64,000 nt of DNA, taken from assembly GCA_902473205.1 (NCBI GenBank), contig CABRRA010000008.1, positions 829-64,828 of the forward strand, read 5' to 3'. Shown piece by piece: positions 1 through 18,004 of this stretch. Numbering within the stretch: the stretch's first letter is position 1; every line of letters starts with the position of its first letter. The stretch is from an uncultured Collinsella sp. (GTDB lineage: Bacteria > Actinomycetota > Coriobacteriia > Coriobacteriales > Coriobacteriaceae). The position numbers and the translations under genes were made by a program. The notes beneath the pieces were generated by a model. That model searched no databases. It was not told where the DNA came from and was given only the letters and a program-made list of their open reading frames with translations.

Positions 1-423
1 GGCGGTCGTCGGCACGGCGATGGTGAACACAGCGTGATTCTTAGTCGGAGCAACGCCCTCGAGGCTGCGGACATCGGCGAACTCGGGGTTGTTGATGATG
101 ATGCCAATGGCCTTGGCGGTGTCCATGGAGGAGCCGCCACCGATGGTCACGATAGCGTCAGCCTCGGCGGCCTTGAAGGCCTCGACGCCGTCCTTGACGT
201 TCTGGACGGTGGGGTTGGGCTTGATCTCGGAGTAGAGGCTCCAAGCGATGCCGGCAGCGTCGAGCTCGTCGGTCACCTTAGCGGTAACGCCAAACTTGAC
301 CAGATCGGGGTCGGAGCAGACGAAGATCTTCTTATAGCCACGACGCTGGAGCTCGCCGGGGATCTCCTTGATGGCGCCGGAACCATGATAAGAGATGGTA
401 TTGAGAACGAAACGATTAGCCAT
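1..423 (-). CDS. fucO: Iron-containing alcohol dehydrogenase / lactaldehyde (1,2-propanediol) reductase, N-terminal 141 aa only; the rest lies outside the window
   Basis: Absent from the ORF track because it runs off the window edge. My reverse-strand translation from ATG 423 reads MANRFVLNTISYHGSGAIKEIPGELQRRGYKKIFVCSDPDLVKFGVTAKVTDELDAAGIAWSLYSEIKPNPTVQNVKDGVEAFKAAEADAIVTIGGGSSMDTAKAIGIIINNPEFADVRSLEGVAP. This is collinear with E. coli FucO as I recall it, including the GGGS..D.AKAIG and NNPEFADVRSLEG stretches. A GGGAGG SD lies just upstream. The listed + ORF 34..426 is its antisense shadow. Confidence 0.85.
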   Translation of the reverse strand, partial: MANRFVLNTISYHGSGAIKEIPGELQRRGYKKIFVCSDPDLVKFGVTAKVTDELDAAGIAWSLYSEIKPNPTVQNVKDGVEAFKAAEADAIVTIGGGSSMDTAKAIGIIINNPEFADVRSLEGVAPTKNHAVFTIAVPTTA

Positions 424-657
424 TGATAGCCTCCCATCGCGTGTGGGGCACCCATTACGCCCCACGCTATGAGTCCCATCCTAACGCTTTTGAAACGAAA
501 AACATGTGAGAACGTCAAATTAGTTAAAGCGTTTCAACATAATAACGGAGTCCTAGACCTTCCCTCCCGACAGCAGCGAAGGCTAGATTATAGGAGCAAT
601 CGCCCAAAGGATACGACCACTCAGTCTATAAATTGTTTCTGTTTTAGCAATATATGT

Positions 658-686
658 TTGACAATACGTTTATAAATGGTTACCTT
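658..686 (+). promoter_or_regulatory. Candidate sigma70-type promoter for the island operon
   Basis: TTGACA (658-663), a 17-nt spacer, then TACCTT (681-686, which keeps the T-A-n-n-n-T positions). It lies about 40 nt upstream of the radical SAM start in AT-rich DNA. This is a motif match only. Confidence 0.3.
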
Positions 687-725
687 ATAGTAAACATCTT
701 AGTTCACTAAAATAACATTAGTGAA

Positions 726-2171
726 ATGAAAGAGGCGGTAGAGATGTTAGTTCTACCCATAAAGACCCTCTTGGGCCACTACATTTATGATGCCAATCGA
801 AACGAGATACTTGCAGTAAGCAAAGATCTCTTCAATTTCATCTCAGAAGTCCAAGCAGGCGATGTTTGCCCCGACTCCTATAAATCAGACCAAGAATTCC
901 AGTTACTACAATCATGTGGCTACTGCTGTGATTCGCCATTGCAGGATGTCGCTTATCCATCAATTGACCTTTTGAAAGTTAAGCTGGAAAGAAATTTACG
1001 GATGATAACCCTTCAGCTGACTCAATCTTGCAACTTCCGATGTGATTACTGTATCTATTCCGAAAACTCCTTATACAACAGAACCCACAGTCATAACTCT
1101 ATGTCTGTTTCGACGGCCAAACATGCAATCGAATTCTTTAAGATGCACTCGATTGACAACCCAAACCCGGTCGTAGCATTTTATGGAGGAGAACCTCTCC
1201 TTCGATTTAGTGAAATTAAGCTAATTACTCAATATGCAGAACAGGTATTTGAAGGAAAACACATCTCATTTCGAATTACAACCAATTGCTCTCTTTTATC
1301 TGAAGATATGGTTAAATTCTTCTTCGATTCTGGGCATGAATTCTATTTGCTAATCAGTCTTGACGGGCCGCAGCAAATCCATGATAAGTCTAGGCATTAC
1401 GCTAATGGTGAGTCCTCATACCAAGCAGTTATAGACAATGTTCATATGATTTTAGACAACCATCCTGAACGCAACAAATATATTCATTTTAATGCCGTAG
1501 TCGACACGAACAACATCTATAAAACAGTCTCTTCCTTTATAAATGATAAGGATATCGAGGCTTGCGATGTTCAATTCAACTACTTGGAACGCAACGGACG
1601 TATCGCCCCCTACAATGACAAGTTCTCAAGTCAACTGAATTACGCCTTATTTAAAGCAAGAATTATGGACGAGCGCAAGATCGAAAAAGGAAACCGCAGC
1701 GATAGGCTCGCTTCATATACGCTTGCAAGCATCAACCAAAACATTAAGCGATTTGCACCTTCGAACATCCCAACAAAAGCTATACCCGGCGGTCCATGCG
1801 AGCCAGGAGTTACGCGTCTATTTGTGACAACAGCAGGAGCGCTTCTTCCTTGCGAAAGGGTCAGCGAAACAACCAAAGACATGTATATCGGTACATTGGA
1901 TTCAGGATTTGATTTAGGTCAAATTGAAAAGATGATCAATGTTTCAAAGCTGACCAGCGATTCATGTAAAAAATGTTGGGCATTTCAGCTGTGCACTCAA
2001 TGCATTAAAAGCGCAGATTGCAAAGGAGTAATTAGCCCTGATTACAAGCGAACAGCATGCGACAACTCAAAACGAATTGCCTTTGATCGACTTAATCAGA
2101 AAATACTTCGCTTTGAGCTTCATAGACACGAAGTGTCCATTACAACGGCTCTTAAAAGGAACAAGCGATAA
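726..2171 (+). CDS. Radical SAM / SPASM-domain peptide-modifying maturase (CcpM-like)
   Basis: 481-aa ORF. It has a CxxxCxxC cluster (LTQSCNFRCDYCIY), FYGGEPLL, and ITTNCSLL...SLDGPQQIHDKSR. The C-terminal region is a Cys-rich SPASM-type stretch (GGPCEPGVTRLFVTTAGALLPCERV...CKKCWAFQLCTQCIKSADC). ATG 744, preceded by AAGAGG, is an alternative start. Confidence 0.85.
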   Translation: MKEAVEMLVLPIKTLLGHYIYDANRNEILAVSKDLFNFISEVQAGDVCPDSYKSDQEFQLLQSCGYCCDSPLQDVAYPSIDLLKVKLERNLRMITLQLTQSCNFRCDYCIYSENSLYNRTHSHNSMSVSTAKHAIEFFKMHSIDNPNPVVAFYGGEPLLRFSEIKLITQYAEQVFEGKHISFRITTNCSLLSEDMVKFFFDSGHEFYLLISLDGPQQIHDKSRHYANGESSYQAVIDNVHMILDNHPERNKYIHFNAVVDTNNIYKTVSSFINDKDIEACDVQFNYLERNGRIAPYNDKFSSQLNYALFKARIMDERKIEKGNRSDRLASYTLASINQNIKRFAPSNIPTKAIPGGPCEPGVTRLFVTTAGALLPCERVSETTKDMYIGTLDSGFDLGQIEKMINVSKLTSDSCKKCWAFQLCTQCIKSADCKGVISPDYKRTACDNSKRIAFDRLNQKILRFELHRHEVSITTALKRNKR

Positions 2172-2176
2172 AAATC

Positions 2177-3190
2177 ATGAAGACAATTGGACTTATATCT
2201 TTCACGAGAGCTGACTATCCTCTTCTAATTGGGTTGCTAGGAATTGGCTACAATATCCGGGTATCAACGCCATGCGGCATTCTACCGGACGGCCTAGATG
2301 TTGCCAACCTTGTTAATTGCAAAGAAATTGGTATAAGAAATCAAATTAACTATGTAACGACAATCGATGAATCAGACCTGGTAGTCATTTTATCGACAAA
2401 AGAAAGCGCCGCAGGACTCATAGAATTTAGTAAACACGCTGAAACCTATGCTCATTCTGTAAATAAGAAGGTTGTCAGCCAACTCGCCACTGAACAAATC
2501 GAGTCTAGCAAAAGCGACATGCAGGATTTAGCCCTGATACCAAAAATTGTTGTCGGGAATCTATATACACCCGCCGATTCAACAATTACGTTTAGTAGCA
2601 TCGTTAGCGAGATGAGAAAGTACCATCCCAATCTATGCGCTTTGAGCTTCAATCCTTTAAATGAAATCTGGGGCTGCAACACCCTTAGTTTTGATGGTGG
2701 CCAATCCGCCATCATCAAAATGAATGAGCAGATCAATCTCATCATTGAAAATGATAAAACCGACCTGGCTCTATTAGAAACGCCCAATGTGCTTATGAAA
2801 TACGACGACCACATTTTCGGAGATTACGGATTAGGATCGATTGCTGCATGTCGAGCTTTCTGCCCTGACTTGGCCATTATCAATATCCCATACACGATAG
2901 CCGACTACGACATAATGCTTGGACTCATGCCCATAATTGAAACGCTTACGCAAGCAGAGAAAGTTCAATTTGAAATTACAAACGAAGTACTTGACGCCAC
3001 GGAAGGGTTGGAGACGCATAGATTTCAAATAAGCTATTCATCTAGCGATAAAGCTATTCAAGCAGCAAGAGAACTTCGACTAAGAGGAATGCCCTGTTTC
3101 TCAGCCAGCTTAGATCCAGAAGAATCATTACTATGCTGCAAAACAATCGAGAACGAGTTGTTTGATTTCGATATTGGGGTGCTGAAATGA
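2177..3190 (+). CDS. Hypothetical protein. By size and position it is a candidate 'peptide maturation system protein' partner of the rSAM enzyme
   Basis: 337-aa ORF starting 5 nt after the rSAM stop. Its stop overlaps the next start (ATGA at 3187-3190). Codon usage is AT-rich like its neighbours. I recognise no motif; the functional call rests on context only. Confidence 0.5.
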   Translation: MKTIGLISFTRADYPLLIGLLGIGYNIRVSTPCGILPDGLDVANLVNCKEIGIRNQINYVTTIDESDLVVILSTKESAAGLIEFSKHAETYAHSVNKKVVSQLATEQIESSKSDMQDLALIPKIVVGNLYTPADSTITFSSIVSEMRKYHPNLCALSFNPLNEIWGCNTLSFDGGQSAIIKMNEQINLIIENDKTDLALLETPNVLMKYDDHIFGDYGLGSIAACRAFCPDLAIINIPYTIADYDIMLGLMPIIETLTQAEKVQFEITNEVLDATEGLETHRFQISYSSSDKAIQAARELRLRGMPCFSASLDPEESLLCCKTIENELFDFDIGVLK

Positions 3191-3501
3191 CAGCATATTG
3201 TAAAGATGAAACCATCTATGCAGAAATCGAAAAAGCGATAAGCAATATTAGAGATTTGGATTTGACTCAATTTGACCAAAATCTAAGAAATCAGCAATTG
3301 ACCGACCCGCCATTCAACTTGTCCTCATCAGATTTAGTTCGACTGCTAATTTATCTTGAAAGCAGGTTTTCTGTTTACGTTGAGTACTCGTCGATTGAAA
3401 ACCTAGGGTTCAACAGTGTTGAGGAGGTGAAGAAGGTAATAGAACAGTCAGAAATAATCGAACAATGGGAGGTAAATCATGAGAAGTATTCGTCCATTTA
3501 A
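3187..3501 (+). CDS. Acyl-carrier-protein-related small protein
   Basis: 104-aa ORF, translationally coupled to the upstream gene. FNLSSSDLVRLLIYLESRF aligns residue-for-residue with the ACP helix-II motif (LG.DSLD.VELVM.LEEEF). That alignment places Ser47 at the phosphopantetheine-Ser position. Confidence 0.6.
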   Translation: MTAYCKDETIYAEIEKAISNIRDLDLTQFDQNLRNQQLTDPPFNLSSSDLVRLLIYLESRFSVYVEYSSIENLGFNSVEEVKKVIEQSEIIEQWEVNHEKYSSI

Positions 3502-3658
3502 CATGCATGCAGTAAATAGCGCCATTCATTTTATTAGAAATTGCCCATGCGGTTATTGCAGCTGCATGTACTGCAACATACTGCGCAATTCTCCGCACGA
3601 AGCAGAAGTCGGTTCCAATTCGATCGAGGCGATGACGCGTGGTGGCTACTGGTCCTAA
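3479..3658 (+). CDS. Cys-rich small ORF (59 aa), candidate RiPP precursor peptide
   Basis: Not in the ORF track because it is below the 60-aa cutoff. My translation is MRSIRPFNMHAVNSAIHFIRNCPCGYCSCMYCNILRNSPHEAEVGSNSIEAMTRGGYWS*. GGGAGG (3466-3471) sits 7 nt before ATG 3479. There are five Cys within 11 residues. It lies directly after the rSAM / unknown / ACP-like genes and overlaps both neighbours slightly in a different frame. ATG 3503 is an alternative start. Confidence 0.55.
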   Translation: MRSIRPFNMHAVNSAIHFIRNCPCGYCSCMYCNILRNSPHEAEVGSNSIEAMTRGGYWS

Positions 3659-4178
3659 ATCGAGCAAGACGGCTACAAACGAATATCGAATCTCAATTGA
3701 GGGTAACCCTTATCCGCATGATCTAGTTCTCATCAACCCAGCTGGAGACAACCTCAATATCAAAAGACATGGGTTCACGGGTCCACTAGGACAGCTATTG
3801 AGTCTAAAATATACCGTTTATGACGATGCAAATGAAAAACTCTTTACTGTCGTCGACGGTGGTTTTAGTAACATGCCCAGGGTTGCGCTCATCATCGAAC
3901 ACAAGGAAGTTGCGGTGTTCGATTATGGCCTAAACAGACTTGAGATGAAGTGCATAACGAACATACCGAATTACACAATAAAAGGTAACTTCCTATTTGG
4001 AGATTACGATATATTCAGCCAACGGGAAGTGAAGCTATCTTCAGTTATCGTCCTTCAATGTGATAAACGATCGTGCTTTAGCATACAGGTTTTGGATAAA
4101 GCCGAATTAGCCGCCGCAATTGGAATACCCACAGCCATTGCCCTTCTGAGGGCTCGGATTGAAGAGCATCTCGAATAA
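3639..4178 (+). CDS. LURP-one-related / YxjI-like (tubby C-terminal-like fold) protein
   Basis: 179-aa ORF. The patterns LSLKYTVYDDANEKLFTVVDG, YTIKGNFLFGDYDIF and CFSIQVLDKAELAAAIGIPTAIALL resemble B. subtilis YxjI / PF04525 as I recall them. The true start may be downstream of 3639. Confidence 0.5.
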   Translation: MVATGPKSSKTATNEYRISIEGNPYPHDLVLINPAGDNLNIKRHGFTGPLGQLLSLKYTVYDDANEKLFTVVDGGFSNMPRVALIIEHKEVAVFDYGLNRLEMKCITNIPNYTIKGNFLFGDYDIFSQREVKLSSVIVLQCDKRSCFSIQVLDKAELAAAIGIPTAIALLRARIEEHLE

Positions 4179-4212
4179 ATCGCAAAAAGCAGTTCGTAGC
4201 AACGTTCAGGAG

Positions 4213-5817
4213 CTAGATAGTTTTTTCTGGCTCCTGAAACTGTATTACATAGTCCGAAAATTGTTCGAAACCATGTCCATGATCCGCAATGATGACGATT
4301 CGCTCTTTCATCTCCTGTGCAACAACCACCTTCAAAAAGGATATCGAAGCATTATCTAAATTGTTGCAAGGCTCATCCAAAATAACAATAGAATAACTGC
4401 TCAGAAAGGCCCTACAAAGTAATAGAGAAGCCAGTTCTCCGCCAGACAAATTGTGTCCCCTAGCTCCAATGATGGGATTTGATTCAAATAATTTATCGAG
4501 GCTAAAACCCCTCAAAAGATAGATGAGTTTTTCAGAGTCAATATCTACAAGACCATAGTAAAGAGCCTTCCTGAAAGTTCCCCCCATTATCAAATGTCTT
4601 TGCGGCATAGTTGCGCAGGGTAGCTGGATTAAAGTCGAACCATCGAAAATGACAGTAGACTCATTAACACACAGTCTGCCAGCAACTGGAGACAATAATC
4701 CATTCAATACTTCCAGAAATGAAGATTTACCACATGCATTAGGGCCGCTTACTAAAACCAGACAAGGTGCCTGTATCGTGCAATCTGGAATTGTTATCCT
4801 CTCATTAGTTTCGTTCGACGAAAACGAGAGACTGATTCCTTTCCAACTAATTCGATCAGCGTGATCGAAGCATATCAAATTAGGTTTTTCAGCTTCCAAA
4901 AGACGACGTAATTCCAAGACACGGTGCAACGATCTAAACGACGGCTGAAGCTGAGCCCAACAATTCAGAACAAGAGGAAAAGGAGAATAGCATAGAAGTA
5001 CAAGTTGATAACTCTGCACTGCAATCCCGACCGTCAGCCCGCGCTTTAACACAAGGAAAATAAGCAGCAGAACTGAAAGCAAGCCAGTAATGATGTTGCC
5101 AGCGTCAACTATTTCAGTTGCCAATCTCGCAAAGACACTCTCCTCAACTCGAGAGTTCCTGCAGGCTTTAAGCATCTTTTTATAGTGAAGTAATTCCAAG
5201 TTAATTGAACGAGAAATACGAATGTAAAGTCGACAATTTATTAGTTGGGCTAAATAAGCAGAACCCCTCGCCTGGGCCTCCAATGCCTTTTCGCTCTTAG
5301 TCGATAGCTTACTAAGAGCGAACGGATATAGAAGCGAAATAAACAATGCCGAAACACAAACAGGAATCAAAAGCAACATAGAGATATTAGATAGCGCCAC
5401 AAACGATACCAAACCCGTCACTAGGCACGGAAGAAACGCAGTTGTAAATATTCCAATCATCGGCTGTAGGTTCCCGGCCTCTTCAATGCGCGATAACAGG
5501 TAGTCACTGTCTTTTGCTAAAACTAAGGGCCGCTCTAAAGCATGGCGGGCAAGCAATCTATAGAAGCAGTTAGCACCATCGGAAGCCAATTGCTCCGCAT
5601 ATTTTGATCTGAACAGATTTGTCACCAGCTCAACTGAGAGCAATACTAGCAGGCCTAACCCAATGTATAAAACGTTACGATAATTAGAACGAAGCAGGCC
5701 ATAATCTATTATCAACGATTCAGCTTTAACAACAGACAGCTCCACCAGGGCAGATAAAATGCAGAGCGCCATCAACTTGATTACTGTCGTCTTATTTTGA
5801 ATAAAAAGCTCTGGCAT
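4213..5817 (-). CDS. ABC transporter, fused permease/ATP-binding half-transporter (exporter type), with no N-terminal C39 peptidase domain
   Basis: 534-aa ORF. The N-terminal half is hydrophobic (multiple TM segments). Motifs present: Walker A GPNACGKSS, signature LSGGE, Walker B IVILDEP, H-loop IIADHG. It is convergent with the LURP-like gene. A GAGGGGA SD and a TATAAT lie upstream on the minus strand. Confidence 0.85.
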   Translation of the reverse strand: MPELFIQNKTTVIKLMALCILSALVELSVVKAESLIIDYGLLRSNYRNVLYIGLGLLVLLSVELVTNLFRSKYAEQLASDGANCFYRLLARHALERPLVLAKDSDYLLSRIEEAGNLQPMIGIFTTAFLPCLVTGLVSFVALSNISMLLLIPVCVSALFISLLYPFALSKLSTKSEKALEAQARGSAYLAQLINCRLYIRISRSINLELLHYKKMLKACRNSRVEESVFARLATEIVDAGNIITGLLSVLLLIFLVLKRGLTVGIAVQSYQLVLLCYSPFPLVLNCWAQLQPSFRSLHRVLELRRLLEAEKPNLICFDHADRISWKGISLSFSSNETNERITIPDCTIQAPCLVLVSGPNACGKSSFLEVLNGLLSPVAGRLCVNESTVIFDGSTLIQLPCATMPQRHLIMGGTFRKALYYGLVDIDSEKLIYLLRGFSLDKLFESNPIIGARGHNLSGGELASLLLCRAFLSSYSIVILDEPCNNLDNASISFLKVVVAQEMKERIVIIADHGHGFEQFSDYVIQFQEPEKTI

Positions 5818-5996
5818 ATGTCCATCCCCTCAACTAATAATTATAGCTAGAAAGATGACATTTTTATTCTATAGCCTCAAGCAGCACGCTTTGCTGACGT
5901 CAAATCTTGTCATTACAAACATGCACCTTAGCGCTTAAGACTCCAAAAATGGGGCGGCCGAGATGGCCGTCCCCTCCCCATTATCGATCTATCTGA

Positions 5997-6025: not shown

Positions 6026-6742
6026 TTACTTTCGACAGCCCTCTTTCCAAGCCTCGGCCGCAACCTTCCAGCGTAAGCGCAAGTCGCGCTCGCGGTCGAT
6101 GAACATGATGGCAAACGCGACAAACAGCAGCAAGCTCGCCACGACGATGGCGTGCAGGCCCATGCGCTCAATACACCAGTTGCCCAACACGGCGCCAAAC
6201 ACAAAGGTAAAGATCACGCCAAAGTACAGCAGGCCGTTTTCCAAAAAGCCGCGCCTGTGGGTGATGATGTAATCGTCCACGTTTTGCAGCGCGTTGCGCA
6301 AGTTGCCGATGCACATGGTCGTAGCGATGCCGTGACCGTGGATCTTGCGGAAGCTCTCGACCTGCATGCCGCAGGCAAACGAGGTGAGGCAGTTGGCGAG
6401 CAGGTTGTAACCGCCACCGGGGATAAAGCTCACGCCCAGCAAGATGACGGCTTCAAAGAACACCGTCACCTGACGCCAGTGGATCACACTGCCAAACCGC
6501 TCGTGTACCAGGTCGGCAAGCATAATGCCCACAGCAAACGACACCACAGGGAAGAAGTAGCGCCCCGCAAGTGCCCAATTGCCCTCCGAGATGCTTACGC
6601 CCACCAGCAAGATATTGCCCGTCTGCGCGTTGGCGAAAACATGGTCGCGCCCAATGTACGAATAAACGTCCATAAAGCCACCGGCGAGCGCCAAGATGAT
6701 GCCCAGCTCAATAGACTCCGATATCTGTTTGGCACGCTGCAT
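6026..6742 (-). CDS. YoaK-family (DUF1275) integral membrane protein
   Basis: The track ORF is 6026..6991. I place the start at ATG 6742 (MQRAKQISESIELGIILALAGGFMDVYSYIGRDHVFANAQTGN...), which is preceded by AAGGAGGA. The GGFMD..Y....VFAN.QTGN pattern and the multi-TM body are typical of DUF1275. Confidence 0.8.
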   Translation of the reverse strand: MQRAKQISESIELGIILALAGGFMDVYSYIGRDHVFANAQTGNILLVGVSISEGNWALAGRYFFPVVSFAVGIMLADLVHERFGSVIHWRQVTVFFEAVILLGVSFIPGGGYNLLANCLTSFACGMQVESFRKIHGHGIATTMCIGNLRNALQNVDDYIITHRRGFLENGLLYFGVIFTFVFGAVLGNWCIERMGLHAIVVASLLLFVAFAIMFIDRERDLRLRWKVAAEAWKEGCRK

Positions 6743-7010
6743 CGTCGTGCATCCTCCTTGTTGACGACTCTCTCGTGCGTTGGCGGAAACATAGCCGCCG
6801 TTCATACTGTAACCCATTGACAACATGGCGTGCGCGCGAGACGGGTTCTCCAACGCGCAGATACACAGTCTGGAAACAAACAGCGGGCGCGGCGCCGGCA
6901 CCCGCATCGACACGCCGATCCGCCAGCTCGTGTACTCCACCAGTCTTTTTAGCCCCGTCCCAAAAAGACTGGTTACAATTACGTGCAGCATACAAACACC
7001 GGGAGGGATC

Positions 7011-9152
7011 GTGGCAAAAAAGCCTCAGCACGCTCAGAACAACCAGCGCAGTCAGCAGGGCAAACAGGGCCAGCAGCAAAAGCGCGGCGGCAAGGCGCAG
7101 GGTGGGCACACCACGCATACCCCAGCAGCGCCCACGCGCCCCTGGCGTCCGGGCCGCGATAAGTTCCTCCCCGTCAGCCGCGCCGACATGGATGCGCGCG
7201 GCTGGGACCAGTGCGACTTTGTCTACATCTGCGGCGACGCCTACGTGGACCACCCTAGCTTTGGTATGGCCATCATCAGCCGCGTCCTCGACGCGCACGG
7301 CTACAAGGTGGGCATCATCTGCCAGCCCGACTGGACCGACCCCGCCAGCATCAGCGTGCTCGGTGAGCCGCGCCTGGGCTTTCTCGTCAGCGCCGGTAAC
7401 ATGGACTCCATGGTCAACCACTATTCGGTGACCAAGCACCGCCGCCACACCGATGCCTATACCCCCGGTGGCGAGGAGGGGCGCCGTCCCAACCGAGCCG
7501 TCACGGTCTACGGCAACCTTATCCGCCAGACGTTCAAGGATGCCCCCATCATCATCGGCGGCATCGAGGCGAGCCTACGCCGTCTGGCCCACTACGACTA
7601 CTGGCAGGACAAGCTCAAGCGCTCGGTACTGCTCGACTCGGGCGCCGACATCCTCATCTACGGCATGGGCGAGCACGCGATTGTCGAGATTGCCGACGCG
7701 CTCGACGCGGGGCTGCCCGTCGATCAGATCACCTATATCAACGGCACCGTCTACCGCACGGGTTCGCTCGACGAGGTCTACGACTACGACCTGCTGCCCA
7801 GCTGGGACGATCTTACCGCCGACAAGCTCAACTACGCACGCAGCTTCAATGTGCAACAGCAGAATATGGACCCCATCACCGGACATCGCCTGGTAGAGCC
7901 CTACCCCAACAGCGTCTATGTGGTGCAGAACCCGCCATCGGCGACGCTCACCACCGATGAGATGGACGAGGTTGCCGAACTCCCCTACGCACGTGACTGG
8001 CATCCCGACTACGACGCGGCGGGCGGCGTGCCGGCCTTTGCCGAGATCAAGTTTTCCATTAGCTCCAACCGCGGCTGTTTTGGCGAGTGCTCGTTTTGCG
8101 CCCTCACCTTCCACCAGGGCCGCGTACTGCAGATGCGCAGCCACGACTCGATCATGCGCGAGGCCGAGCTGCTCACGCGCGATCCCGAGTTTAAGGGTTA
8201 CATCAACGACGTGGGCGGACCGACGGCAAACTTTAGCCGCCCGGCCTGCGACAAGCAGCTCAAGCACGGCGTGTGCAAGAACAAACGCTGCCTGTGGCCG
8301 AGCGTATGCAAGAACATGGTGGTCGACGAGAGCGGCTACACGCAGCTGTTGCGCGACCTGCGCCAGCTGCCGGGCGTCAAAAAGGTCTTCGTGCGCAGCG
8401 GCATCCGCTTTGACTACACCATGGCCGACGCCTCGGACGAGTTTTTGCGCGAGCTGCTGGAGCACCATGTCTCGGGCCAGCTGCGCGTAGCGCCCGAGCA
8501 CGTGAGCGACGCGGTGCTGTCCGTGATGGGCAAGCCGAGCCGCGCCGTCTACGATGCATTCTGCCGTAAATTTGAACGCTTGAATCGCGAGTATGGACTC
8601 AAGCAGTATGTGGTGCCGTACCTCATCTCGAGCCACCCGGGCTCAACCATGAAGGAAGCCGTGGACCTTGCCGAGGCCGTGCGCGACATGGGCTACATGC
8701 CCGAGCAAGTGCAGGACTTCTACCCCACGCCGTCCACCATGTCGACGTGCATGTACTACACCGGCGTGGACCCGCGCACCATGGAGCCGATCTATGTGGC
8801 GCGCGACCCGCACGAGAAGGCCATGCAGCGCGCGCTCATCCAATATCGCAAGCCCGAGAACTACAAGCTCGTACGCGAGGCGCTGGAAAAGGCCGGGCGT
8901 CGTGACCTGATCGGCTACACCAAGCATTGTCTGATTCGCCCCGTGCCGCCACGCCCGGGCGAGACATCTGCTGGCGGCGGACACGGCGCTGGCAAGAAAG
9001 GCGGCAAGCCGCACGGTGGCGCTGGCGGTGCCGGCAAGGGGCCAAAGGGCAGCAAGGGGCACAGCGGCATGTCGCGCGCACAGAACACTGCCGGTCGCAA
9101 TCGCGCGGCCCAGGGACGGCAGGGCGCCAACGGAGGCGGGCGTCGCAATTAG
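7011..9152 (+). CDS. ygiQ: YgiQ-family (UPF0313) radical SAM protein with a Gly/Lys-rich C-terminal tail
   Basis: The track ORF is 6825..9152. A likely GTG start at 7011 follows GGGAGG. FLPVSRADMDARGWDQCDFVYICGDAYVDHPSFGMAIISRVLDAHGYKVGIICQPDW parallels the E. coli YgiQ N-terminus. The radical SAM cluster is SNRGCFGECSFC. Confidence 0.85.
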   Translation: MAKKPQHAQNNQRSQQGKQGQQQKRGGKAQGGHTTHTPAAPTRPWRPGRDKFLPVSRADMDARGWDQCDFVYICGDAYVDHPSFGMAIISRVLDAHGYKVGIICQPDWTDPASISVLGEPRLGFLVSAGNMDSMVNHYSVTKHRRHTDAYTPGGEEGRRPNRAVTVYGNLIRQTFKDAPIIIGGIEASLRRLAHYDYWQDKLKRSVLLDSGADILIYGMGEHAIVEIADALDAGLPVDQITYINGTVYRTGSLDEVYDYDLLPSWDDLTADKLNYARSFNVQQQNMDPITGHRLVEPYPNSVYVVQNPPSATLTTDEMDEVAELPYARDWHPDYDAAGGVPAFAEIKFSISSNRGCFGECSFCALTFHQGRVLQMRSHDSIMREAELLTRDPEFKGYINDVGGPTANFSRPACDKQLKHGVCKNKRCLWPSVCKNMVVDESGYTQLLRDLRQLPGVKKVFVRSGIRFDYTMADASDEFLRELLEHHVSGQLRVAPEHVSDAVLSVMGKPSRAVYDAFCRKFERLNREYGLKQYVVPYLISSHPGSTMKEAVDLAEAVRDMGYMPEQVQDFYPTPSTMSTCMYYTGVDPRTMEPIYVARDPHEKAMQRALIQYRKPENYKLVREALEKAGRRDLIGYTKHCLIRPVPPRPGETSAGGGHGAGKKGGKPHGGAGGAGKGPKGSKGHSGMSRAQNTAGRNRAAQGRQGANGGGRRN

Positions 9153-13755: not shown

Positions 13756-14026
13756 ATGTCGTTGTTCCTTATCTGCACGCGTCATGGGCGCGGCATGCGG
13801 CCGCGCGGGCGTGCTTGGTAGTGCGCTAATACATACAAATACGGGTGCGCACAGAGAGGACGTTGCTCAGCACGCTGGCGATCGCTTTGGCAGCCCTATC
13901 ACGCGCCGTCCAGACGCAGCGGCCCTAAGCGATGGAGCAGATTCGCCGCGGGTTAGTATACCCGTGCTTCGCATGCCCCCACGTAAACCACAGATGACGA
14001 GGCGGACGCGGCGGGCCCGGCTGATT

Positions 14027-14164
14027 GTCTCAATCTGTAACATCTACAGGGCAAATCTTCCTCTACGTGTTACAGATCGAGACAAACGGTCGACACGGTT
14101 CACAAACGTCTCAATCTGTAACAGTTATCGAGTAAAATCGGCCCTAATTGTTATAGATCAAGAC
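14027..14164. repeat. Family A array A1: 2 units of the 80-81 bp periodic palindromic repeat
   Basis: 16-nt arms GTCTCAATCTGTAACA (14027-14042), TGTTACAGATCGAGAC (14068-14083), GTCTCAATCTGTAACA (14108-14123) and TGTTATAGATCAAGAC (14149-14164). Loops are 25 nt and the linker is 24 nt. Confidence 0.9.
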
Positions 14165-14343
14165 AGAGGGGGATTTCCGTTCAGTCCAAACCAAATCTCT
14201 CGCTCTTCCTGCAATTTCGAACATGTGGCCTATAATGTTGCTTTGGTTACGCTATATATTGCGCAGCCATTTAATACGTCGCCCACCGGGAGCCATTAAT
14301 TCCTATCGCCATATTGGCTAGGAAGCAATCAAAGGAGGTATCC

Positions 14344-15306
14344 GTGGCAGCAGAGACGCCTTGCTCGGTCCTCTATAACGATATTCGCTCGTTCGGCGGT
14401 CTTAAACATCTCGAGATCGCCCGAATGCTCATCAATGGAAACTCTTATCTCGGCAGTACCCTGCTCGAGAAATGCTCTTCCAACCGCTCGTATCTCACCC
14501 GTTACATCGTCCATCGCAAGCCTGACCAGTGCGCGCCCGCCATCTACAGCGACTTTACCGTCACCACGCTCAACCTTTCCGCGGCAATCTGCAGCAAGCT
14601 CGGCGGCGGCGAGTCCGCCTATCGGGCAATCGCCGAGCACTATCGCGGTCCGGCCGCCAACGAAATGATGTCGGCTCTCGCCAGCTACAAGCTGGACAGC
14701 CGCCTATATGCAAATACCCTCAATCGCATCGATAACTTTGACGGCAATGCCGTGCGCGAAAAAAGCACGCTCTTCTTGATGCTCTTTGTGGCAACGGGGG
14801 CGCTCGCCGATCCCGTTCAGGGCGTGGCCACCGTCGAGCGCTTTTGCGACAGCAAGACGGGCGGGCACTTTGGCACCACCGAAACTACCGTCGGACGTGG
14901 CTTTATGAGCAGCCTGGAGCAGCCGCGCACCGTCGCCCCCAACCTCGGTCTGCTCAGAACCCATGCCGACAACTGCGCCGACATGCAAATCCATCCCCTC
15001 ACACGCGATCCGCGCGGCACCGTAATTGGTTCTTTGCCCAAAACCTCGCCCAGCATCACCGATGTGGGCGCCGACGCATCGCGCGAGCATCTTCGCATTT
15101 GGCTTGAGGGTGAGCACTGGTACGCCCAGGGCCTTGGATCGACCAACGGCACGGTACTCGAATCGGGTGCAGGCGACGGCGATATTGTGATTGAGCCGCC
15201 GCGCGACCAACGCGAGCCCGGCAAGATCTATCCCCCAGTGAAAATCGAAAACAGCGACAGGCTCCATCTGGGTCTCTACACGACATTCCTTGTCATTGTG
15301 GACTAG
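14344..15306 (+). CDS. FHA-domain protein: an N-terminal region of unknown function followed by a C-terminal FHA domain
   Basis: The track ORF is 14314..15306. A likely GTG start at 14344 sits 6 nt after AAAGGAGG. The C-terminal stretch VIGSLP...DASREHLRIWLEGEHWYAQGLGSTNGTVLES...VKIENSDRLHLGLYTTFLV carries the FHA hallmarks (G-x, S-x-x-H, N-G-T). Confidence 0.75.
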   Translation: MAAETPCSVLYNDIRSFGGLKHLEIARMLINGNSYLGSTLLEKCSSNRSYLTRYIVHRKPDQCAPAIYSDFTVTTLNLSAAICSKLGGGESAYRAIAEHYRGPAANEMMSALASYKLDSRLYANTLNRIDNFDGNAVREKSTLFLMLFVATGALADPVQGVATVERFCDSKTGGHFGTTETTVGRGFMSSLEQPRTVAPNLGLLRTHADNCADMQIHPLTRDPRGTVIGSLPKTSPSITDVGADASREHLRIWLEGEHWYAQGLGSTNGTVLESGAGDGDIVIEPPRDQREPGKIYPPVKIENSDRLHLGLYTTFLVIVD

Positions 15307-15477: not shown

Positions 15478-17562
15478 ATGGATACTACCGATAGCGCCTA
15501 TGGCGACAAACTCATCCGTCTCGATACGTTCGATACCGCCGTGGCGGTCGACCCCAGCGCCGAGGACGACGCCAAACGTCGGTTTATGACGCTTATTCTC
15601 CAGACGGCCCACCGCAACAACGGCAACATCGGGCACGTGCTGCGCGCGACCAACACGAGCGGCGAGGTCTTTGCCGTCAAGCTACTCAAGGACAACGCTA
15701 TCCTTTCCGGCCAAGCCCCCGACCGCTCCGCCGAGCAATCGGCCGCTCACTTGGCCAACACCGCCGCGCTATTCGAGGAGTACCGTCATCTTTGTACCGT
15801 CTCGCACCTGCGCGGATTTCCGCGCGTCTATGGCTACGGATCGTGCGAGGATGACCCGCTCATCCTCATGGAGTGGGTCGAGGGCACCTCGCTCAAGCAG
15901 GCGCTGCCCCTGCTTCCGCACGACGCCTCGGGCGGGCTGACCACCCAGATGGTCGCCGCCGTCGGAAACGCCGTGCTTCGTGCGCTCTTGATGACCCAAG
16001 GCCTCGTGAACCCGGTCATCCATCGCGATCTGTCGCCCGCCAATATTATGTTCCGCACCACCAGCCGAACGCTCGAGCAGCAGATTGCCGATTGCTCCTT
16101 TGACCCCTGCCTCATCGACATGGGCTCCGCGACCATGGCTCTCGGCGACGACACGATCACCCGGTGCGCCGACATCTGGCGCTTTGCCACGCCCGCATAC
16201 GCCGCGCCCGAGATGCTCACGCAGGATATCGAAGGCATCGCGGCCCTTCGCCGTTCGCCGGCAATCGACGTCTATGCGCTTTCGAGCATTCTGTACCAGC
16301 TCTACAGCGGTCGCAAACCGTTTGACTTTGAGTCGACGGACGCCGCTGCAACCGGCTCGTTCTATCTCGTAAAGACCAAGACCAAGCCGGCACCGCTCGA
16401 GCCGCGCTGCGAGGGCGATGAGGCGCTCGTCCAGATCATCATGAAGGGTCTCTCAGTCGAGCAGTGCGATCGTCCCACCGAGCAGCAGATGCTCGAGGTG
16501 CTCTCGGCATACCTCACCGACGCCGAATCCGAAGGCCGCGAAGGTGCAGGAGACGAGGCCGCAATTGATATCGATTCTGGCACGCACCTTAAGGTCGACG
16601 TCGCCGGCGAGCGCGCACGAGAGATCCTGAATCAGGCCCGCCACGATGCCATGACCCGCCGCCGCTTTATTATCGGCGGCGCTATCGCAGCCGTTGCGGG
16701 GCTCAGCGTTATCGGGGCGGCAACCCATGGCTTTGGCATCCCCGACTACCTCGACGGCATCCGCGGTTCACTTGACGACTACACCTGGGATCAGCTGCAG
16801 GAGATTTCGCTCAAGATTAAGGCCGCCGAGACCCGTAGCGAGGCACGCGAGATTGCCAAGCGCTATCACCTGCTCGATGCCGATGGGCATATCCCCTATC
16901 CGTGTACCAAGCGTGTCACGCTCACCAACGGGCTGCAGGTTGGCGCGCAGCTTGTGGGCATCCGCCACGATGAGCTTCTGGACGGGACGGGCAAGGCCGG
17001 ACTGACGTTTATGTTCGACGCGGGTATTGCCGAGCGCAACGCTGCGGCTGAACCGCCGAGCGCCGGCTGGGCAGATTGCGAGCTGCGGAAATGGCTCAAC
17101 GGCGACGGCCTTAAGCTGCTGCCCAACGAGTTGCGCGCACTCATCAAATCTGTCAAAAAGATCTCGAATAACGCTGGCGCCGCCAACAGTGCATCGTGTC
17201 TGAGCGAGTTGCCCGCAACCCTTTGGCTGCCCGCCATGGTCGAGCTGTGCGGTACGCAACCGCCCGATTCGTTTGCCAAGGACTATCACTACCTGGCAGA
17301 CATCTACAACGGCGAGGGCAAGGGGTACCAACTCTTCCGCGAGCTCAAGGTGAGCCCGTATTCCACGAACGAGACGATGGTCCGCCAGTGGAAGGGCAAG
17401 GACACCTGCTGGTGGGAGCGCACGGTGAGCCCCGACTCATCGGAGACCGAAGGCACGCTCTATTTGAATCGCGTTGGACACGACGGCGACGTCTTTACGT
17501 ACGCAACGCCTGCGGACAAGCCAAACAAACGAACCTGTGTGATCCCCGGATTCTGTATCTAG
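15478..17562 (+). CDS. Transmembrane Ser/Thr protein kinase (Hanks type) with a C-terminal extracytoplasmic domain resembling DUF6273
   Basis: The track ORF is 15391..17562. I place the start at ATG 15478, after AAAGGAA. Kinase motifs: VFAVKLL (VAIK Lys), IHRDLSPANIMF (HRD), LIDMGSA (DFG-like) and YAAPEM (APE). One TM segment, TRRRFIIGGAIAAVAGLSVIGAA, follows. The roughly 270-aa C-terminal domain contains GWADCELRKWLNGDG and TCWWERTVSP motifs. Confidence 0.85.
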   Translation: MDTTDSAYGDKLIRLDTFDTAVAVDPSAEDDAKRRFMTLILQTAHRNNGNIGHVLRATNTSGEVFAVKLLKDNAILSGQAPDRSAEQSAAHLANTAALFEEYRHLCTVSHLRGFPRVYGYGSCEDDPLILMEWVEGTSLKQALPLLPHDASGGLTTQMVAAVGNAVLRALLMTQGLVNPVIHRDLSPANIMFRTTSRTLEQQIADCSFDPCLIDMGSATMALGDDTITRCADIWRFATPAYAAPEMLTQDIEGIAALRRSPAIDVYALSSILYQLYSGRKPFDFESTDAAATGSFYLVKTKTKPAPLEPRCEGDEALVQIIMKGLSVEQCDRPTEQQMLEVLSAYLTDAESEGREGAGDEAAIDIDSGTHLKVDVAGERAREILNQARHDAMTRRRFIIGGAIAAVAGLSVIGAATHGFGIPDYLDGIRGSLDDYTWDQLQEISLKIKAAETRSEAREIAKRYHLLDADGHIPYPCTKRVTLTNGLQVGAQLVGIRHDELLDGTGKAGLTFMFDAGIAERNAAAEPPSAGWADCELRKWLNGDGLKLLPNELRALIKSVKKISNNAGAANSASCLSELPATLWLPAMVELCGTQPPDSFAKDYHYLADIYNGEGKGYQLFRELKVSPYSTNETMVRQWKGKDTCWWERTVSPDSSETEGTLYLNRVGHDGDVFTYATPADKPNKRTCVIPGFCI

Positions 17563-17604
17563 AGAGCGGGCGTCTTGCCGTGACGGGACCCCTCCCCGGC
17601 AATT

Positions 17605-17902
17605 GTCTCGATCTGTAACACTAGCTCGGCAGATACAGGTCTAGATGTTACAGAACGAGACAAACCCCAACCCCGCGAGACAACATCTCAATCTGTAACA
17701 ACTAGGACCCAAATATCGGTCTTGCTGTTACAGATCGAGATGTTCAGGTTACCCTCGAATGGTTTGTCTCGATCTGTAACATCTAGCAGGCAAAACAGTC
17801 CCCAGATGTTACAGATTGAGACGTTAAGTTGTGGCTCGATGAAATATCTAGATCTGTAACAGTTACTCGACAAAAACGGGTCTAGTTGTTACAGATTGAG
17901 AC
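17605..17902. repeat. Family A array A2: 4 units of the 80-81 bp periodic palindromic repeat
   Basis: Arms start at 17605, 17646, 17685, 17726, 17766, 17807, 17846 and 17887, alternating in orientation. Same-orientation spacing is 80, 81, 80 bp. Confidence 0.9.
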
Positions 17903-17979
17903 ATTAGACCGGCTACGGTCCGCCGACCTGGCTATCACCTCGGCCAATAACAGAATGGCATACATTTCAATCTCCACTG

Positions 17980-18004
17980 TACACCCCCAGGGGGTATGGG
18001 TGTA
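17980..18004. promoter_or_regulatory. Candidate CsoR operator upstream of copA
   Basis: TACACCCCCAGGGGGTATGGGTGTA contains the near-palindrome ACACCCCC-A-GGGGGTAT. This resembles known CsoR boxes of the type TACCC...GGGGGTA. It overlaps a TATAGT -10-like hexamer about 50 nt before the copA ATG, and a csoR gene lies in the same locus. Confidence 0.5.

Follow-up and report, generated by a model that had tools for sequence, protein, structure and literature searches.

The closest described relatives of the locus reported here belong to the CcpM system, known from Clostridia and Paenibacillus, which makes peptides that are synthesised on the ribosome and modified after translation (RiPPs). In these clusters a gene for a radical S-adenosylmethionine (radical SAM) maturase is followed by genes for a protein of ~340-380 aa, an acyl carrier protein (ACP)-like protein of ~80-100 aa and a precursor peptide of ~60 aa, and an ATP-binding cassette (ABC) exporter is also encoded. 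The canonical precursors share a three-part layout, with a basic leader of ~20 aa, a Cys-rich centre and a Cys-free tail. The same gene order, again with an ABC exporter, is found in an AT-rich island within a 64,000-nucleotide stretch of DNA from an uncultured Collinsella sp. (contig CABRRA010000008.1), hereafter the window. Collinsella aerofaciens is among the most prevalent actinobacteria of the human gut, and the searchable literature yielded no report of a radical SAM peptide cluster in this species, nor of the present cluster in Collinsella. An earlier note on this DNA had taken the CcpM system to be known only from comparative genomics. That view is outdated, as the peptide SacP23 of Paenibacillus polymyxa #23, which comes from a TIGR04068/TIGR04066/TIGR04069 cluster, has been expressed heterologously and is antimicrobial (PMC10731318). 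This exported peptide of 3,404 Da acts against Gram-positive bacteria; its N-terminus is Edman-blocked and its structure unsolved (PMC10731318).

The Collinsella island is likely to be a horizontally acquired, divergent CcpM-type radical SAM RiPP pathway that makes a thioether peptide, with a 179-aa protein that protects the producer. The element and its six genes are as follows.

540..5996, no strand: inserted AT-rich island, 5,457 bp, between the fucO and DUF1275 genes (empty-site alignment, composition)
726..2171, + strand: radical SAM/SPASM peptide maturase, 481 aa (TIGR04068 CcpM, PF04055)
2177..3190, + strand: 337-aa accessory protein, a distant TIGR04066 relative (hidden Markov model (HMM) match, AlphaFold2 model, Foldseek)
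3187..3501, + strand: ACP-related protein, 104 aa (TIGR04069)
3479..3658, + strand: precursor peptide gene, 59 aa (Shine-Dalgarno sequence, conservation, homologous peptides)
3639..4178, + strand: 179-aa protein, proposed self-immunity (retention in reduced forms of the island)
4213..5817, - strand: ABC exporter, fused permease and ATPase, 534 aa (PF00005)

The genes for the maturase, the 337-aa protein, the ACP-like protein and the precursor are adjacent and co-oriented on the + strand in the CcpM-type order, with gaps or overlaps of 5, -4 and -23 nt; the open reading frame (ORF) coordinates of the earlier note, with their 5-nt gap and ATGA overlap, were reproduced exactly. The best match of the maturase is TIGR04068 (CcpM) at 416.1 bits, with residues 12-457 aligned to positions 5-451 of a 462-position model whose cut-off is 500 bits, and PF04055 matches at 52.6 bits. 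The radical SAM motif CX3CX2C is present (C102, C106 and C109), as are C-terminal cysteines typical of SPASM domains (358, 376, 414, 417, 423, 426, 432 and 445). Among solved structures the thioether synthase CteB (PDB 5wgg, E 8e-22) comes closest; the alignment with it begins at residue 91 of the maturase, whose N-terminal ~90 aa are left over at the place of the CteB peptide-recognition domain. The next-best HMMs are those of the RumMC, lachnocin, PapB and QhpD maturases. The protein is 34-37% identical to named CcpMs, and its nearest homologs outside Collinsella, at 40-44% identity, come from Firmicutes metagenome contigs and a metagenome-assembled genome (MAG) of Clostridium paraputrificum. 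Other assemblies call the gene from an alternative start at 744, giving 475 aa.

How closely does this triad belong to the CcpM family? TIGR04068, TIGR04066 and TIGR04069, listed in the earlier note for this system, are indeed the best matches of the three signature proteins, but all three proteins score below the cut-offs (416/500, 38/200 and 34/70 bits). A canonical control cluster, L020, reaches 523 bits with TIGR04068 and 226 bits with TIGR04066. The Firmicutes locus L015 gives 465 and 158 bits, also below both cut-offs. Since the precursor has no TIGR04065 match either, the island represents a divergent sister clade and not a family member by NCBIfam criteria. By sequence comparison, the window locus is in a sister clade together with six Firmicutes loci (L015/L016, L017, L019, L169, L170 and L172), and this clade has a precursor signature of its own. 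The name Clo7bot, attached to the system in the earlier note, belongs to a separate radical SAM system, TIGR04334, so that two systems had been merged. TIGR04334, with a cut-off of 600 bits, does not figure in the list of the 25 best families of the window maturase, which goes down to 52 bits; the L015 maturase scores 58 bits with TIGR04334.

The 59-aa Cys-rich ORF at 3479-3658, previously noticed as the candidate cluster peptide, is a real precursor gene. A GGGAGG Shine-Dalgarno sequence stands 7 nt 5' of its ATG, all 30 full-form loci keep the frame unbroken, and homologous peptide ORFs of 58-60 aa lie 3' of the ACP-like gene in all six Firmicutes loci of the sister clade. The peptide combines a variable N-terminal part of ~20 aa, a CxCGxCxCxxC centre and a conserved PHEAEVGSN...GGY tail, and so matches the canonical precursors in its three-part layout of basic leader, Cys cluster and tail free of Cys. 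The Cys-rich centre is invariant among the first seven variant Collinsella loci compared, and 15 columns (M1, C22, C24, G25, C27, C29, C32, P39, H40, A42, E43, G45, N47, G56 and Y57) are invariant among four precursors only ~40% identical. Comparison of the window clade with three canonical CLI_3235 peptides, a set that includes the SacP23/Sacti5 sequence from PMC7343975, gave an hhalign probability of 84.5% (E 6.9e-6) over the leader and Cys region. Another Cys-containing ORF, of 68 aa at 469-675, was considered as an alternative precursor and rejected: it has no Shine-Dalgarno sequence, spans the island border at 540 and matches no family.

The TIGR04066 match of the 337-aa protein, at 38.1 bits (cut-off 200), covers only residues 179-328, in the C-terminal half, and a word-indexed homolog search recovered Collinsella copies only. 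An exhaustive phmmer/HMMER search of 1.8 billion representatives found 55 relatives of ~350-380 aa at 19-29% identity. Positions P8, G34, D41, P122, G218 and N269 of the protein are nearly invariant. With a 49-sequence alignment as input, AlphaFold2 produced a model with pLDDT 88.9 and pTM 0.77 which, from its secondary structure, seems to comprise two alpha/beta domains; a single-sequence model (pLDDT 32) was discarded. The top Foldseek matches are the DUF1611 proteins 2obn and 2g0t and the N-acetyltransferase DgcN (7xrj), with TM 0.50-0.60 and probability 1.00. These matches run over the full length (351-393 aligned columns) at a sequence identity of only 7-12%, and Pfam gives no DUF1611 match. 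The stretch read as the P-loop equivalent, VGNLYTPADST, is without GK[ST]. The model is a confident one, and its two-domain fold appears DUF1611/DgcN-like.

Its ACP-like partner scores 34.1 bits with TIGR04069 against a cut-off of 70; the canonical L020 protein likewise reaches only 34.9 bits, so this cut-off does not discriminate here. The phosphopantetheine-Ser column was located by alignment to Ser36 of Escherichia coli AcpP. Ser occupies this column in the window protein and in L020, and Gly in L015, L017, L019, L169 and L021 (S/G/G/G/G/S/G across the seven). As five of seven family members carry Gly, a conserved acyl-carrier function appears unlikely for the family. The exporter aligns to positions 148-655 of the peptidase-containing ABC model, that is, without the C39 peptidase domain. 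Clusters of this kind usually include a subtilase; one is encoded in the related clusters L015, L020 and L021, in the SacP23 cluster and in that of Roseburia intestinalis L1-82. With the Firmicutes-type subtilase absent from the island, a protease encoded elsewhere would have to trim the product.

The island stands out sharply in composition and interrupts a junction that is otherwise conserved. The features that bear on its borders and flanks are listed below.

1..423, - strand: host fucO-like Fe-alcohol dehydrogenase gene, 5' part, left flank (PF00465 on the complete gene in L002 and L012; GC content at third codon positions (GC3) 0.80)
540..725, + strand: non-coding region 5' of the operon, presumed promoter site, of which 540-694 is kept in the common deletion form
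5945..5969, - strand: terminator-like hairpin and T-run at the right island edge, 3' of the DUF1275 gene (consensus scan only)
6026..6742, - strand: host DUF1275 (YoaK-type) membrane protein gene, right flank (PF06912, E 4.5e-54)

The flip to A/T between fucO and the YoaK-family gene, reported earlier, was borne out by a sliding-window check in which GC, GC3 and tetranucleotide composition all deviate. Overall GC is 0.42 in the island and 0.61 in the surrounding DNA. Per 400-nt window, GC falls from 0.61 to 0.37-0.45 at ~450-5950 and returns to 0.57-0.68 beyond. Inside the island 500-nt windows average 0.417 (maximum 0.444), and outside it 0.614 (standard deviation 0.044, minimum 0.49). The only other 500-nt windows below 0.50 in the 64 kb, at 14001-14500 and 17501-18000 (0.49 and 0.496), are much milder. 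GC3 of the six island genes is 0.41-0.50, compared with 0.80 in fucO, 0.78 in the DUF1275 gene and 0.84 in ygiQ (YgiQ). The tetranucleotide L1 distance to the rest of the window is 0.692 for the island, compared with 0.144 +/- 0.026 (maximum 0.209) for other 5.46-kb segments. The closest sister-clade members have a GC of 0.37-0.41, near that of the island.

Genomes with an empty site define the borders. In these, window positions 1-539 are joined to 5997 onward with only ~20 bp between; the 5,457-bp island replaces these ~20 bp beside a terminator hairpin, between the end of the DUF1275 gene and the fucO promoter region. The island originally proposed at 480-5945 is therefore real, and its exact limits are now 540-5996. 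The native hairpin of the empty site, GCGGCAAAGGG...CCCTTTGCCGC, is partly broken by the insertion. As the earlier note had remarked, no integrase or terminal repeats are visible: NCBIfam and Pfam scans of the proteins of 540-5996 matched neither an integrase nor a transposase, searches of the island ends brought up no terminal repeats, whether direct or inverted, and no tRNA or other RNA family was found at the insertion site. A consensus promoter scan found no + strand promoter in 540-725.

The Firmicutes neighbourhoods look different. L015:1-5681 adjoins a phage-type integrase and phage-like small genes, L016:1449-2738 adjoins an IS110 transposase, and L021:935-7702 adjoins integrase, NikA-like and MobC mobilisation genes. 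From these neighbours the Firmicutes clusters appear to travel on mobile elements, unlike the bare Collinsella insertion. At the right flank, the longest ORFs of ygiQ (6825-9152, + strand, 775 aa) and of the DUF1275 gene (6026-6991, - strand, 321 aa) run into each other head to head over ~170 nt. As the versions called in other assemblies are shorter, with 711 aa for ygiQ and 238 aa for DUF1275, it is unlikely that the long N-terminal extensions are translated.

To survey the distribution of the island, the DUF1275 protein was searched for in a single genome of each GTDB species, which yielded 80 Collinsella loci with DUF1275 proteins 99-100% identical. The site is empty in 61 of them, with a fucO-DUF1275 spacing of ~150 bp. 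Three are full, two are cut by a contig end but retain the ABC gene, nine are reduced and five could not be scored. The island is thus far from universal among relatives, and the earlier proposal of a laterally acquired radical SAM/SPASM RiPP operon in an actinobacterial host holds, the host being Collinsella and most of its relatives lacking the island. An identical maturase occurs on 20 human-gut contigs, all flanked by the Fe-alcohol dehydrogenase (fucO) and DUF1275 genes, and close homologs of the 337-aa protein are annotated as Collinsella aerofaciens. In one carrier group, islands are 98.0-98.5% identical and flanks 93-97%. This greater likeness of the island hints that it passes from one Collinsella lineage to another via homologous recombination in the conserved flanks. 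The window, the isolate genome L012 and two MAGs, L068 and L089, have the complete set of six intact genes. Between Collinsella island haplogroups that are 4-9% apart, every gene is under purifying selection, with ratios of nonsynonymous to synonymous substitution rates (dN/dS) of 0.18-0.31 (maturase 0.21-0.24, exporter 0.23-0.28).

Reduced forms of the island fall into at least three independent deletion architectures, each of which keeps the 179-aa gene. In the common form, seen in 9 of the 80 genomes and, among 66 metagenome loci, in 38, nothing is left but 540-694, 3499-4443 and 5771-5996, with junctions 694|3499 and 4443|5771. As both ends of the ABC gene are still there, it is derived from a full island by two deletions. 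L130 is a second, independent derivative in which the 5' end of the maturase gene is fused to the 3' end of the ACP-like gene and the ABC gene is gone. A third is L102, in a Coriobacteriaceae genome of greater distance: its flanks show 82-85% identity and its left junction is the same. On this Logan contig (SRR27722925) a lone 184-aa homolog of the 179-aa gene lies between fucO and DUF1275 (L102:908-1462), and a short tandem repeat 5' of it, GGCATCGAGGCATCGAGGTATCGAGGTATCGAGGCGATG, looks like a vestige of the peptide gene's 3' end.

What happens to two neighbouring genes after these deletions is very different. In the common reduced form the peptide gene has lost its start codon and ribosome-binding site as well as the last three residues, and V44 in the otherwise invariant PHEAEVG motif is changed to D or G; L046 and L101 carry more deletions. 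The 179-aa gene, by contrast, is full length in nine of nine reduced-form genomes that cover the locus, in 36 of 38 reduced metagenome loci and in L130; among full-form metagenome loci it is intact in 27 of 29. Its dN/dS among reduced forms, and hence after the loss of the biosynthetic genes, is ~0.1-0.4, and its segregating sites there are distributed 6/2/12 over the three codon positions. The adjacent peptide gene evolves ~4x faster in reduced forms. In six reduced-form genomes the GTG start codon of the 179-aa gene has become ATG. The L102 homolog is 54% identical, with GC raised from 0.43 to 0.56. This combination of an intact gene under purifying selection and a degenerating peptide gene in the same deletion forms points to immunity. 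The simplest reading is that the 179-aa protein would confer self-protection and would be kept as an orphan immunity gene by former producers.

The identity of the protein is less easily pinned down. The label 'LURP-one-like', given to it in the earlier note, could not be verified by Pfam, NCBIfam, BLASTP, a PDB profile search or hhalign, all of which were negative or marginal. No Pfam family, including LURP-one/Tubby C-terminal-like (PF04525, PF23728), matches the window protein at E<=10, and a per-member Pfam scan gave a LOR match in one of seven family members, at E 0.1. The PDB profile search returned nothing relevant. Against the LOR-like proteins of L015 and L017, hhalign gave a probability of 3%, and BLASTP with the L015 protein gave a collinear alignment at 17% identity (E 0.02). 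Because related Firmicutes clusters carry small, weakly LOR/Tubby-like proteins, a LOR/Tubby-like nature is kept as a lead.

From these parts a tentative route for the pathway can be drawn. The N-terminal ~20 residues of the precursor would be bound by the N-terminal domain of the radical SAM/SPASM enzyme, which, to judge from CteB, RumMC, PapB and QhpD, would convert the five invariant cysteines (C22, C24, C27, C29 and C32) to intramolecular thioethers. Their partners would probably be residues of the conserved PHEAEVGSN tail, so that the peptide would fold into a hairpin like that of other sacti- and ranthipeptides. A second step, for which acyl transfer is one candidate, may be performed or scaffolded by the DUF1611/DgcN-fold protein together with its Ser-less ACP-like partner. 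The ABC transporter would then export the product, a protease from outside the island would trim it, and the 179-aa protein, as comparative genomics suggests, would shield the producer. The product is probably a cross-linked, Cys-rich bacteriocin-type peptide, and by analogy with SacP23 it may be antimicrobial.

Several observations weigh against this account. The three signature proteins all fall under the curated family thresholds. TIGR04065, also listed in the earlier note, does not match the precursor even at E<=10. The peptides of L015, L017 and L019 do not match at that threshold either, and the control L020 peptide scores 34 bits with this 34-position model of leader and Cys region, whose cut-off is 26 bits. 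No S8 subtilase or other peptidase was matched among the island proteins by NCBIfam and Pfam, and the exporter is without C39. In the 179-aa protein neither a known family nor a signal peptide or transmembrane segment can be recognised, so that the argument for immunity is one of comparative genomics. To our knowledge, the product chemistry of CcpM-type family members is undetermined, and the mass of 3,404 Da given for SacP23 is not reconciled with its sequence. About one third of the metagenomic full-form copies (L105-L129) contain a frameshift or stop in the maturase, 337-aa, ACP or ABC gene, where low-coverage assembly error is possible. One full island, L041, carries a 168-bp in-frame deletion in the 179-aa gene (window-equivalent 3843-4010), which would be unexpected for a producer if the gene gives immunity.

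The missing protease enters into one alternative, in which the island would be a relic in decay that arrived with no leader protease, yields no mature product and is being lost piecemeal, the 179-aa gene being simply the last piece. The several independent deletion forms and the 61 empty sites out of 80 would fit such a history, as would the absence of subtilase and C39; the interrupted metagenomic copies would fit as well, but were not used as evidence of decay on account of possible assembly error. Yet all six genes are intact in four carriers and each is under constraint. Nor would one expect of a neutral remnant that the 179-aa gene stays under purifying selection once the other genes are deleted, that its start codon improves and that a distant relative has a GC-ameliorated copy at 54% identity; we regard a relic as unlikely. 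The cytoplasmic appearance of the 179-aa protein fits another idea: the product could be a secreted signal or a metal-binding peptide, to which this protein would serve, inside the cell, as receptor or binding partner. Five closely set cysteines could bind metal, CcpM-type products have no known chemistry or target, and signal 'cheaters' likewise give up production and retain the receptor. Against it, SacP23, the one family member that has been tested, is antimicrobial (PMC10731318), all of the nearest characterised enzymes bridge their peptides by thioethers and thereby use up the Cys thiols, and the NCBIfam and Pfam scans found no regulator, kinase or DNA-binding domain in the island; a signal or metal-binding role is in our judgement quite unlikely.

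The position of the 179-aa gene, whose start overlaps the end of the precursor gene and suggests translational coupling, also invites a biosynthetic role, that of a chaperone or scaffold like the LOR/Tubby-like proteins beside related clusters. The weak resemblance to the L015 protein (17% identity) would agree with this, although hhalign offers little for such a kinship. A maturation helper would moreover be useless without the maturase, accessory and exporter genes, and yet the gene is kept under purifying selection and stands alone in L102; a helper in place of an immunity protein is very unlikely. A self-protecting, CcpM-type pathway therefore remains the preferred reading. Beyond it, two linked proposals may be ventured together, with a rather low expectation that both are right: that the DUF1611/DgcN-fold protein and its Ser-less ACP-like partner, a pair which all CcpM-type clusters have kept, catalyse an undescribed RiPP modification, and that the 179-aa protein founds a new family of cytoplasmic bacteriocin-immunity proteins. 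N-terminal acylation is one candidate reaction, which would fit the Edman-blocked N-terminus reported for SacP23. Should the 179-aa protein prove to be such an immunity family, producer, immune-only and sensitive genotypes would coexist among human-gut Collinsella.

At one fixed chromosomal position, then, Collinsella displays a natural polymorphism of three states: the full island, a putative immunity-only remnant and the empty site. With all three states at a single position, strain-versus-strain antagonism is directly testable with existing isolates, the strain of GCA_028209475.1 being one that carries the island. The island itself is a compact CcpM-type pathway, protease-free and with a single precursor, that packs six genes into 5.5 kb; it offers a convenient entry to the chemistry of such pathways and to the roles of the accessory proteins. 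This type of system had already been catalogued. Of interest beyond that are the polymorphism, which occurs in a gut species of high prevalence, the gene that may encode a new kind of immunity, and the likeness of the conserved accessory protein to the DUF1611 fold.

Orphan immunity genes in bacteriocin non-producers are a general phenomenon in lactic acid bacteria and streptococci. There, as in the reduced forms of Collinsella, a small adjacent gene is kept while the structural gene degenerates; the 179-aa protein, however, is like none of the known immunity families and looks cytoplasmic. CteB (SCIFF), RumMC (sactipeptide), PapB (ranthipeptide) and QhpD share with the island system a radical SAM core, SPASM cysteines and Cys-rich substrates, and the island maturase has an N-terminal extension at the place of the CteB peptide-recognition domain. 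This likeness to thioether maturases is confined to the core (81 bits for CteB; 148-184 bits with family models whose cut-offs are 340-720), and these systems are without the TIGR04066 and TIGR04069 accessory pair.

Nearest of all is the sister clade. Its Firmicutes peptides have in common with the island peptide the CxCGxCxCxxC centre and a PHE-x-E-V/M-G-S/T-N tail, and the order of maturase, ~360-aa protein, ~95-aa protein and 58-60-aa peptide recurs in L015-L019, L170 and L172, L015 differing from the island in its subtilase-like gene. The gene beside the precursor changes from cluster to cluster, as is often seen with immunity genes. It encodes a weakly LOR/Tubby-like protein in L015 and L017 and a lipoprotein-like one in L172, and no homolog of the 179-aa gene was found in the sister-clade loci. 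The protein encoded after the L172 precursor (L172:3757-4401) has 214 aa and an N-terminus of lipoprotein type (LFLCGC), and is neither LOR-like nor of the 179-aa type. Compared with the CcpM system as a whole, the island is set apart by the clade-specific PHEAEVG(S/T)N...GGY tail of its precursor, by the lack of a subtilase, by an unrelated 179-aa gene and by a host that belongs to the Coriobacteriia and not to the Firmicutes.

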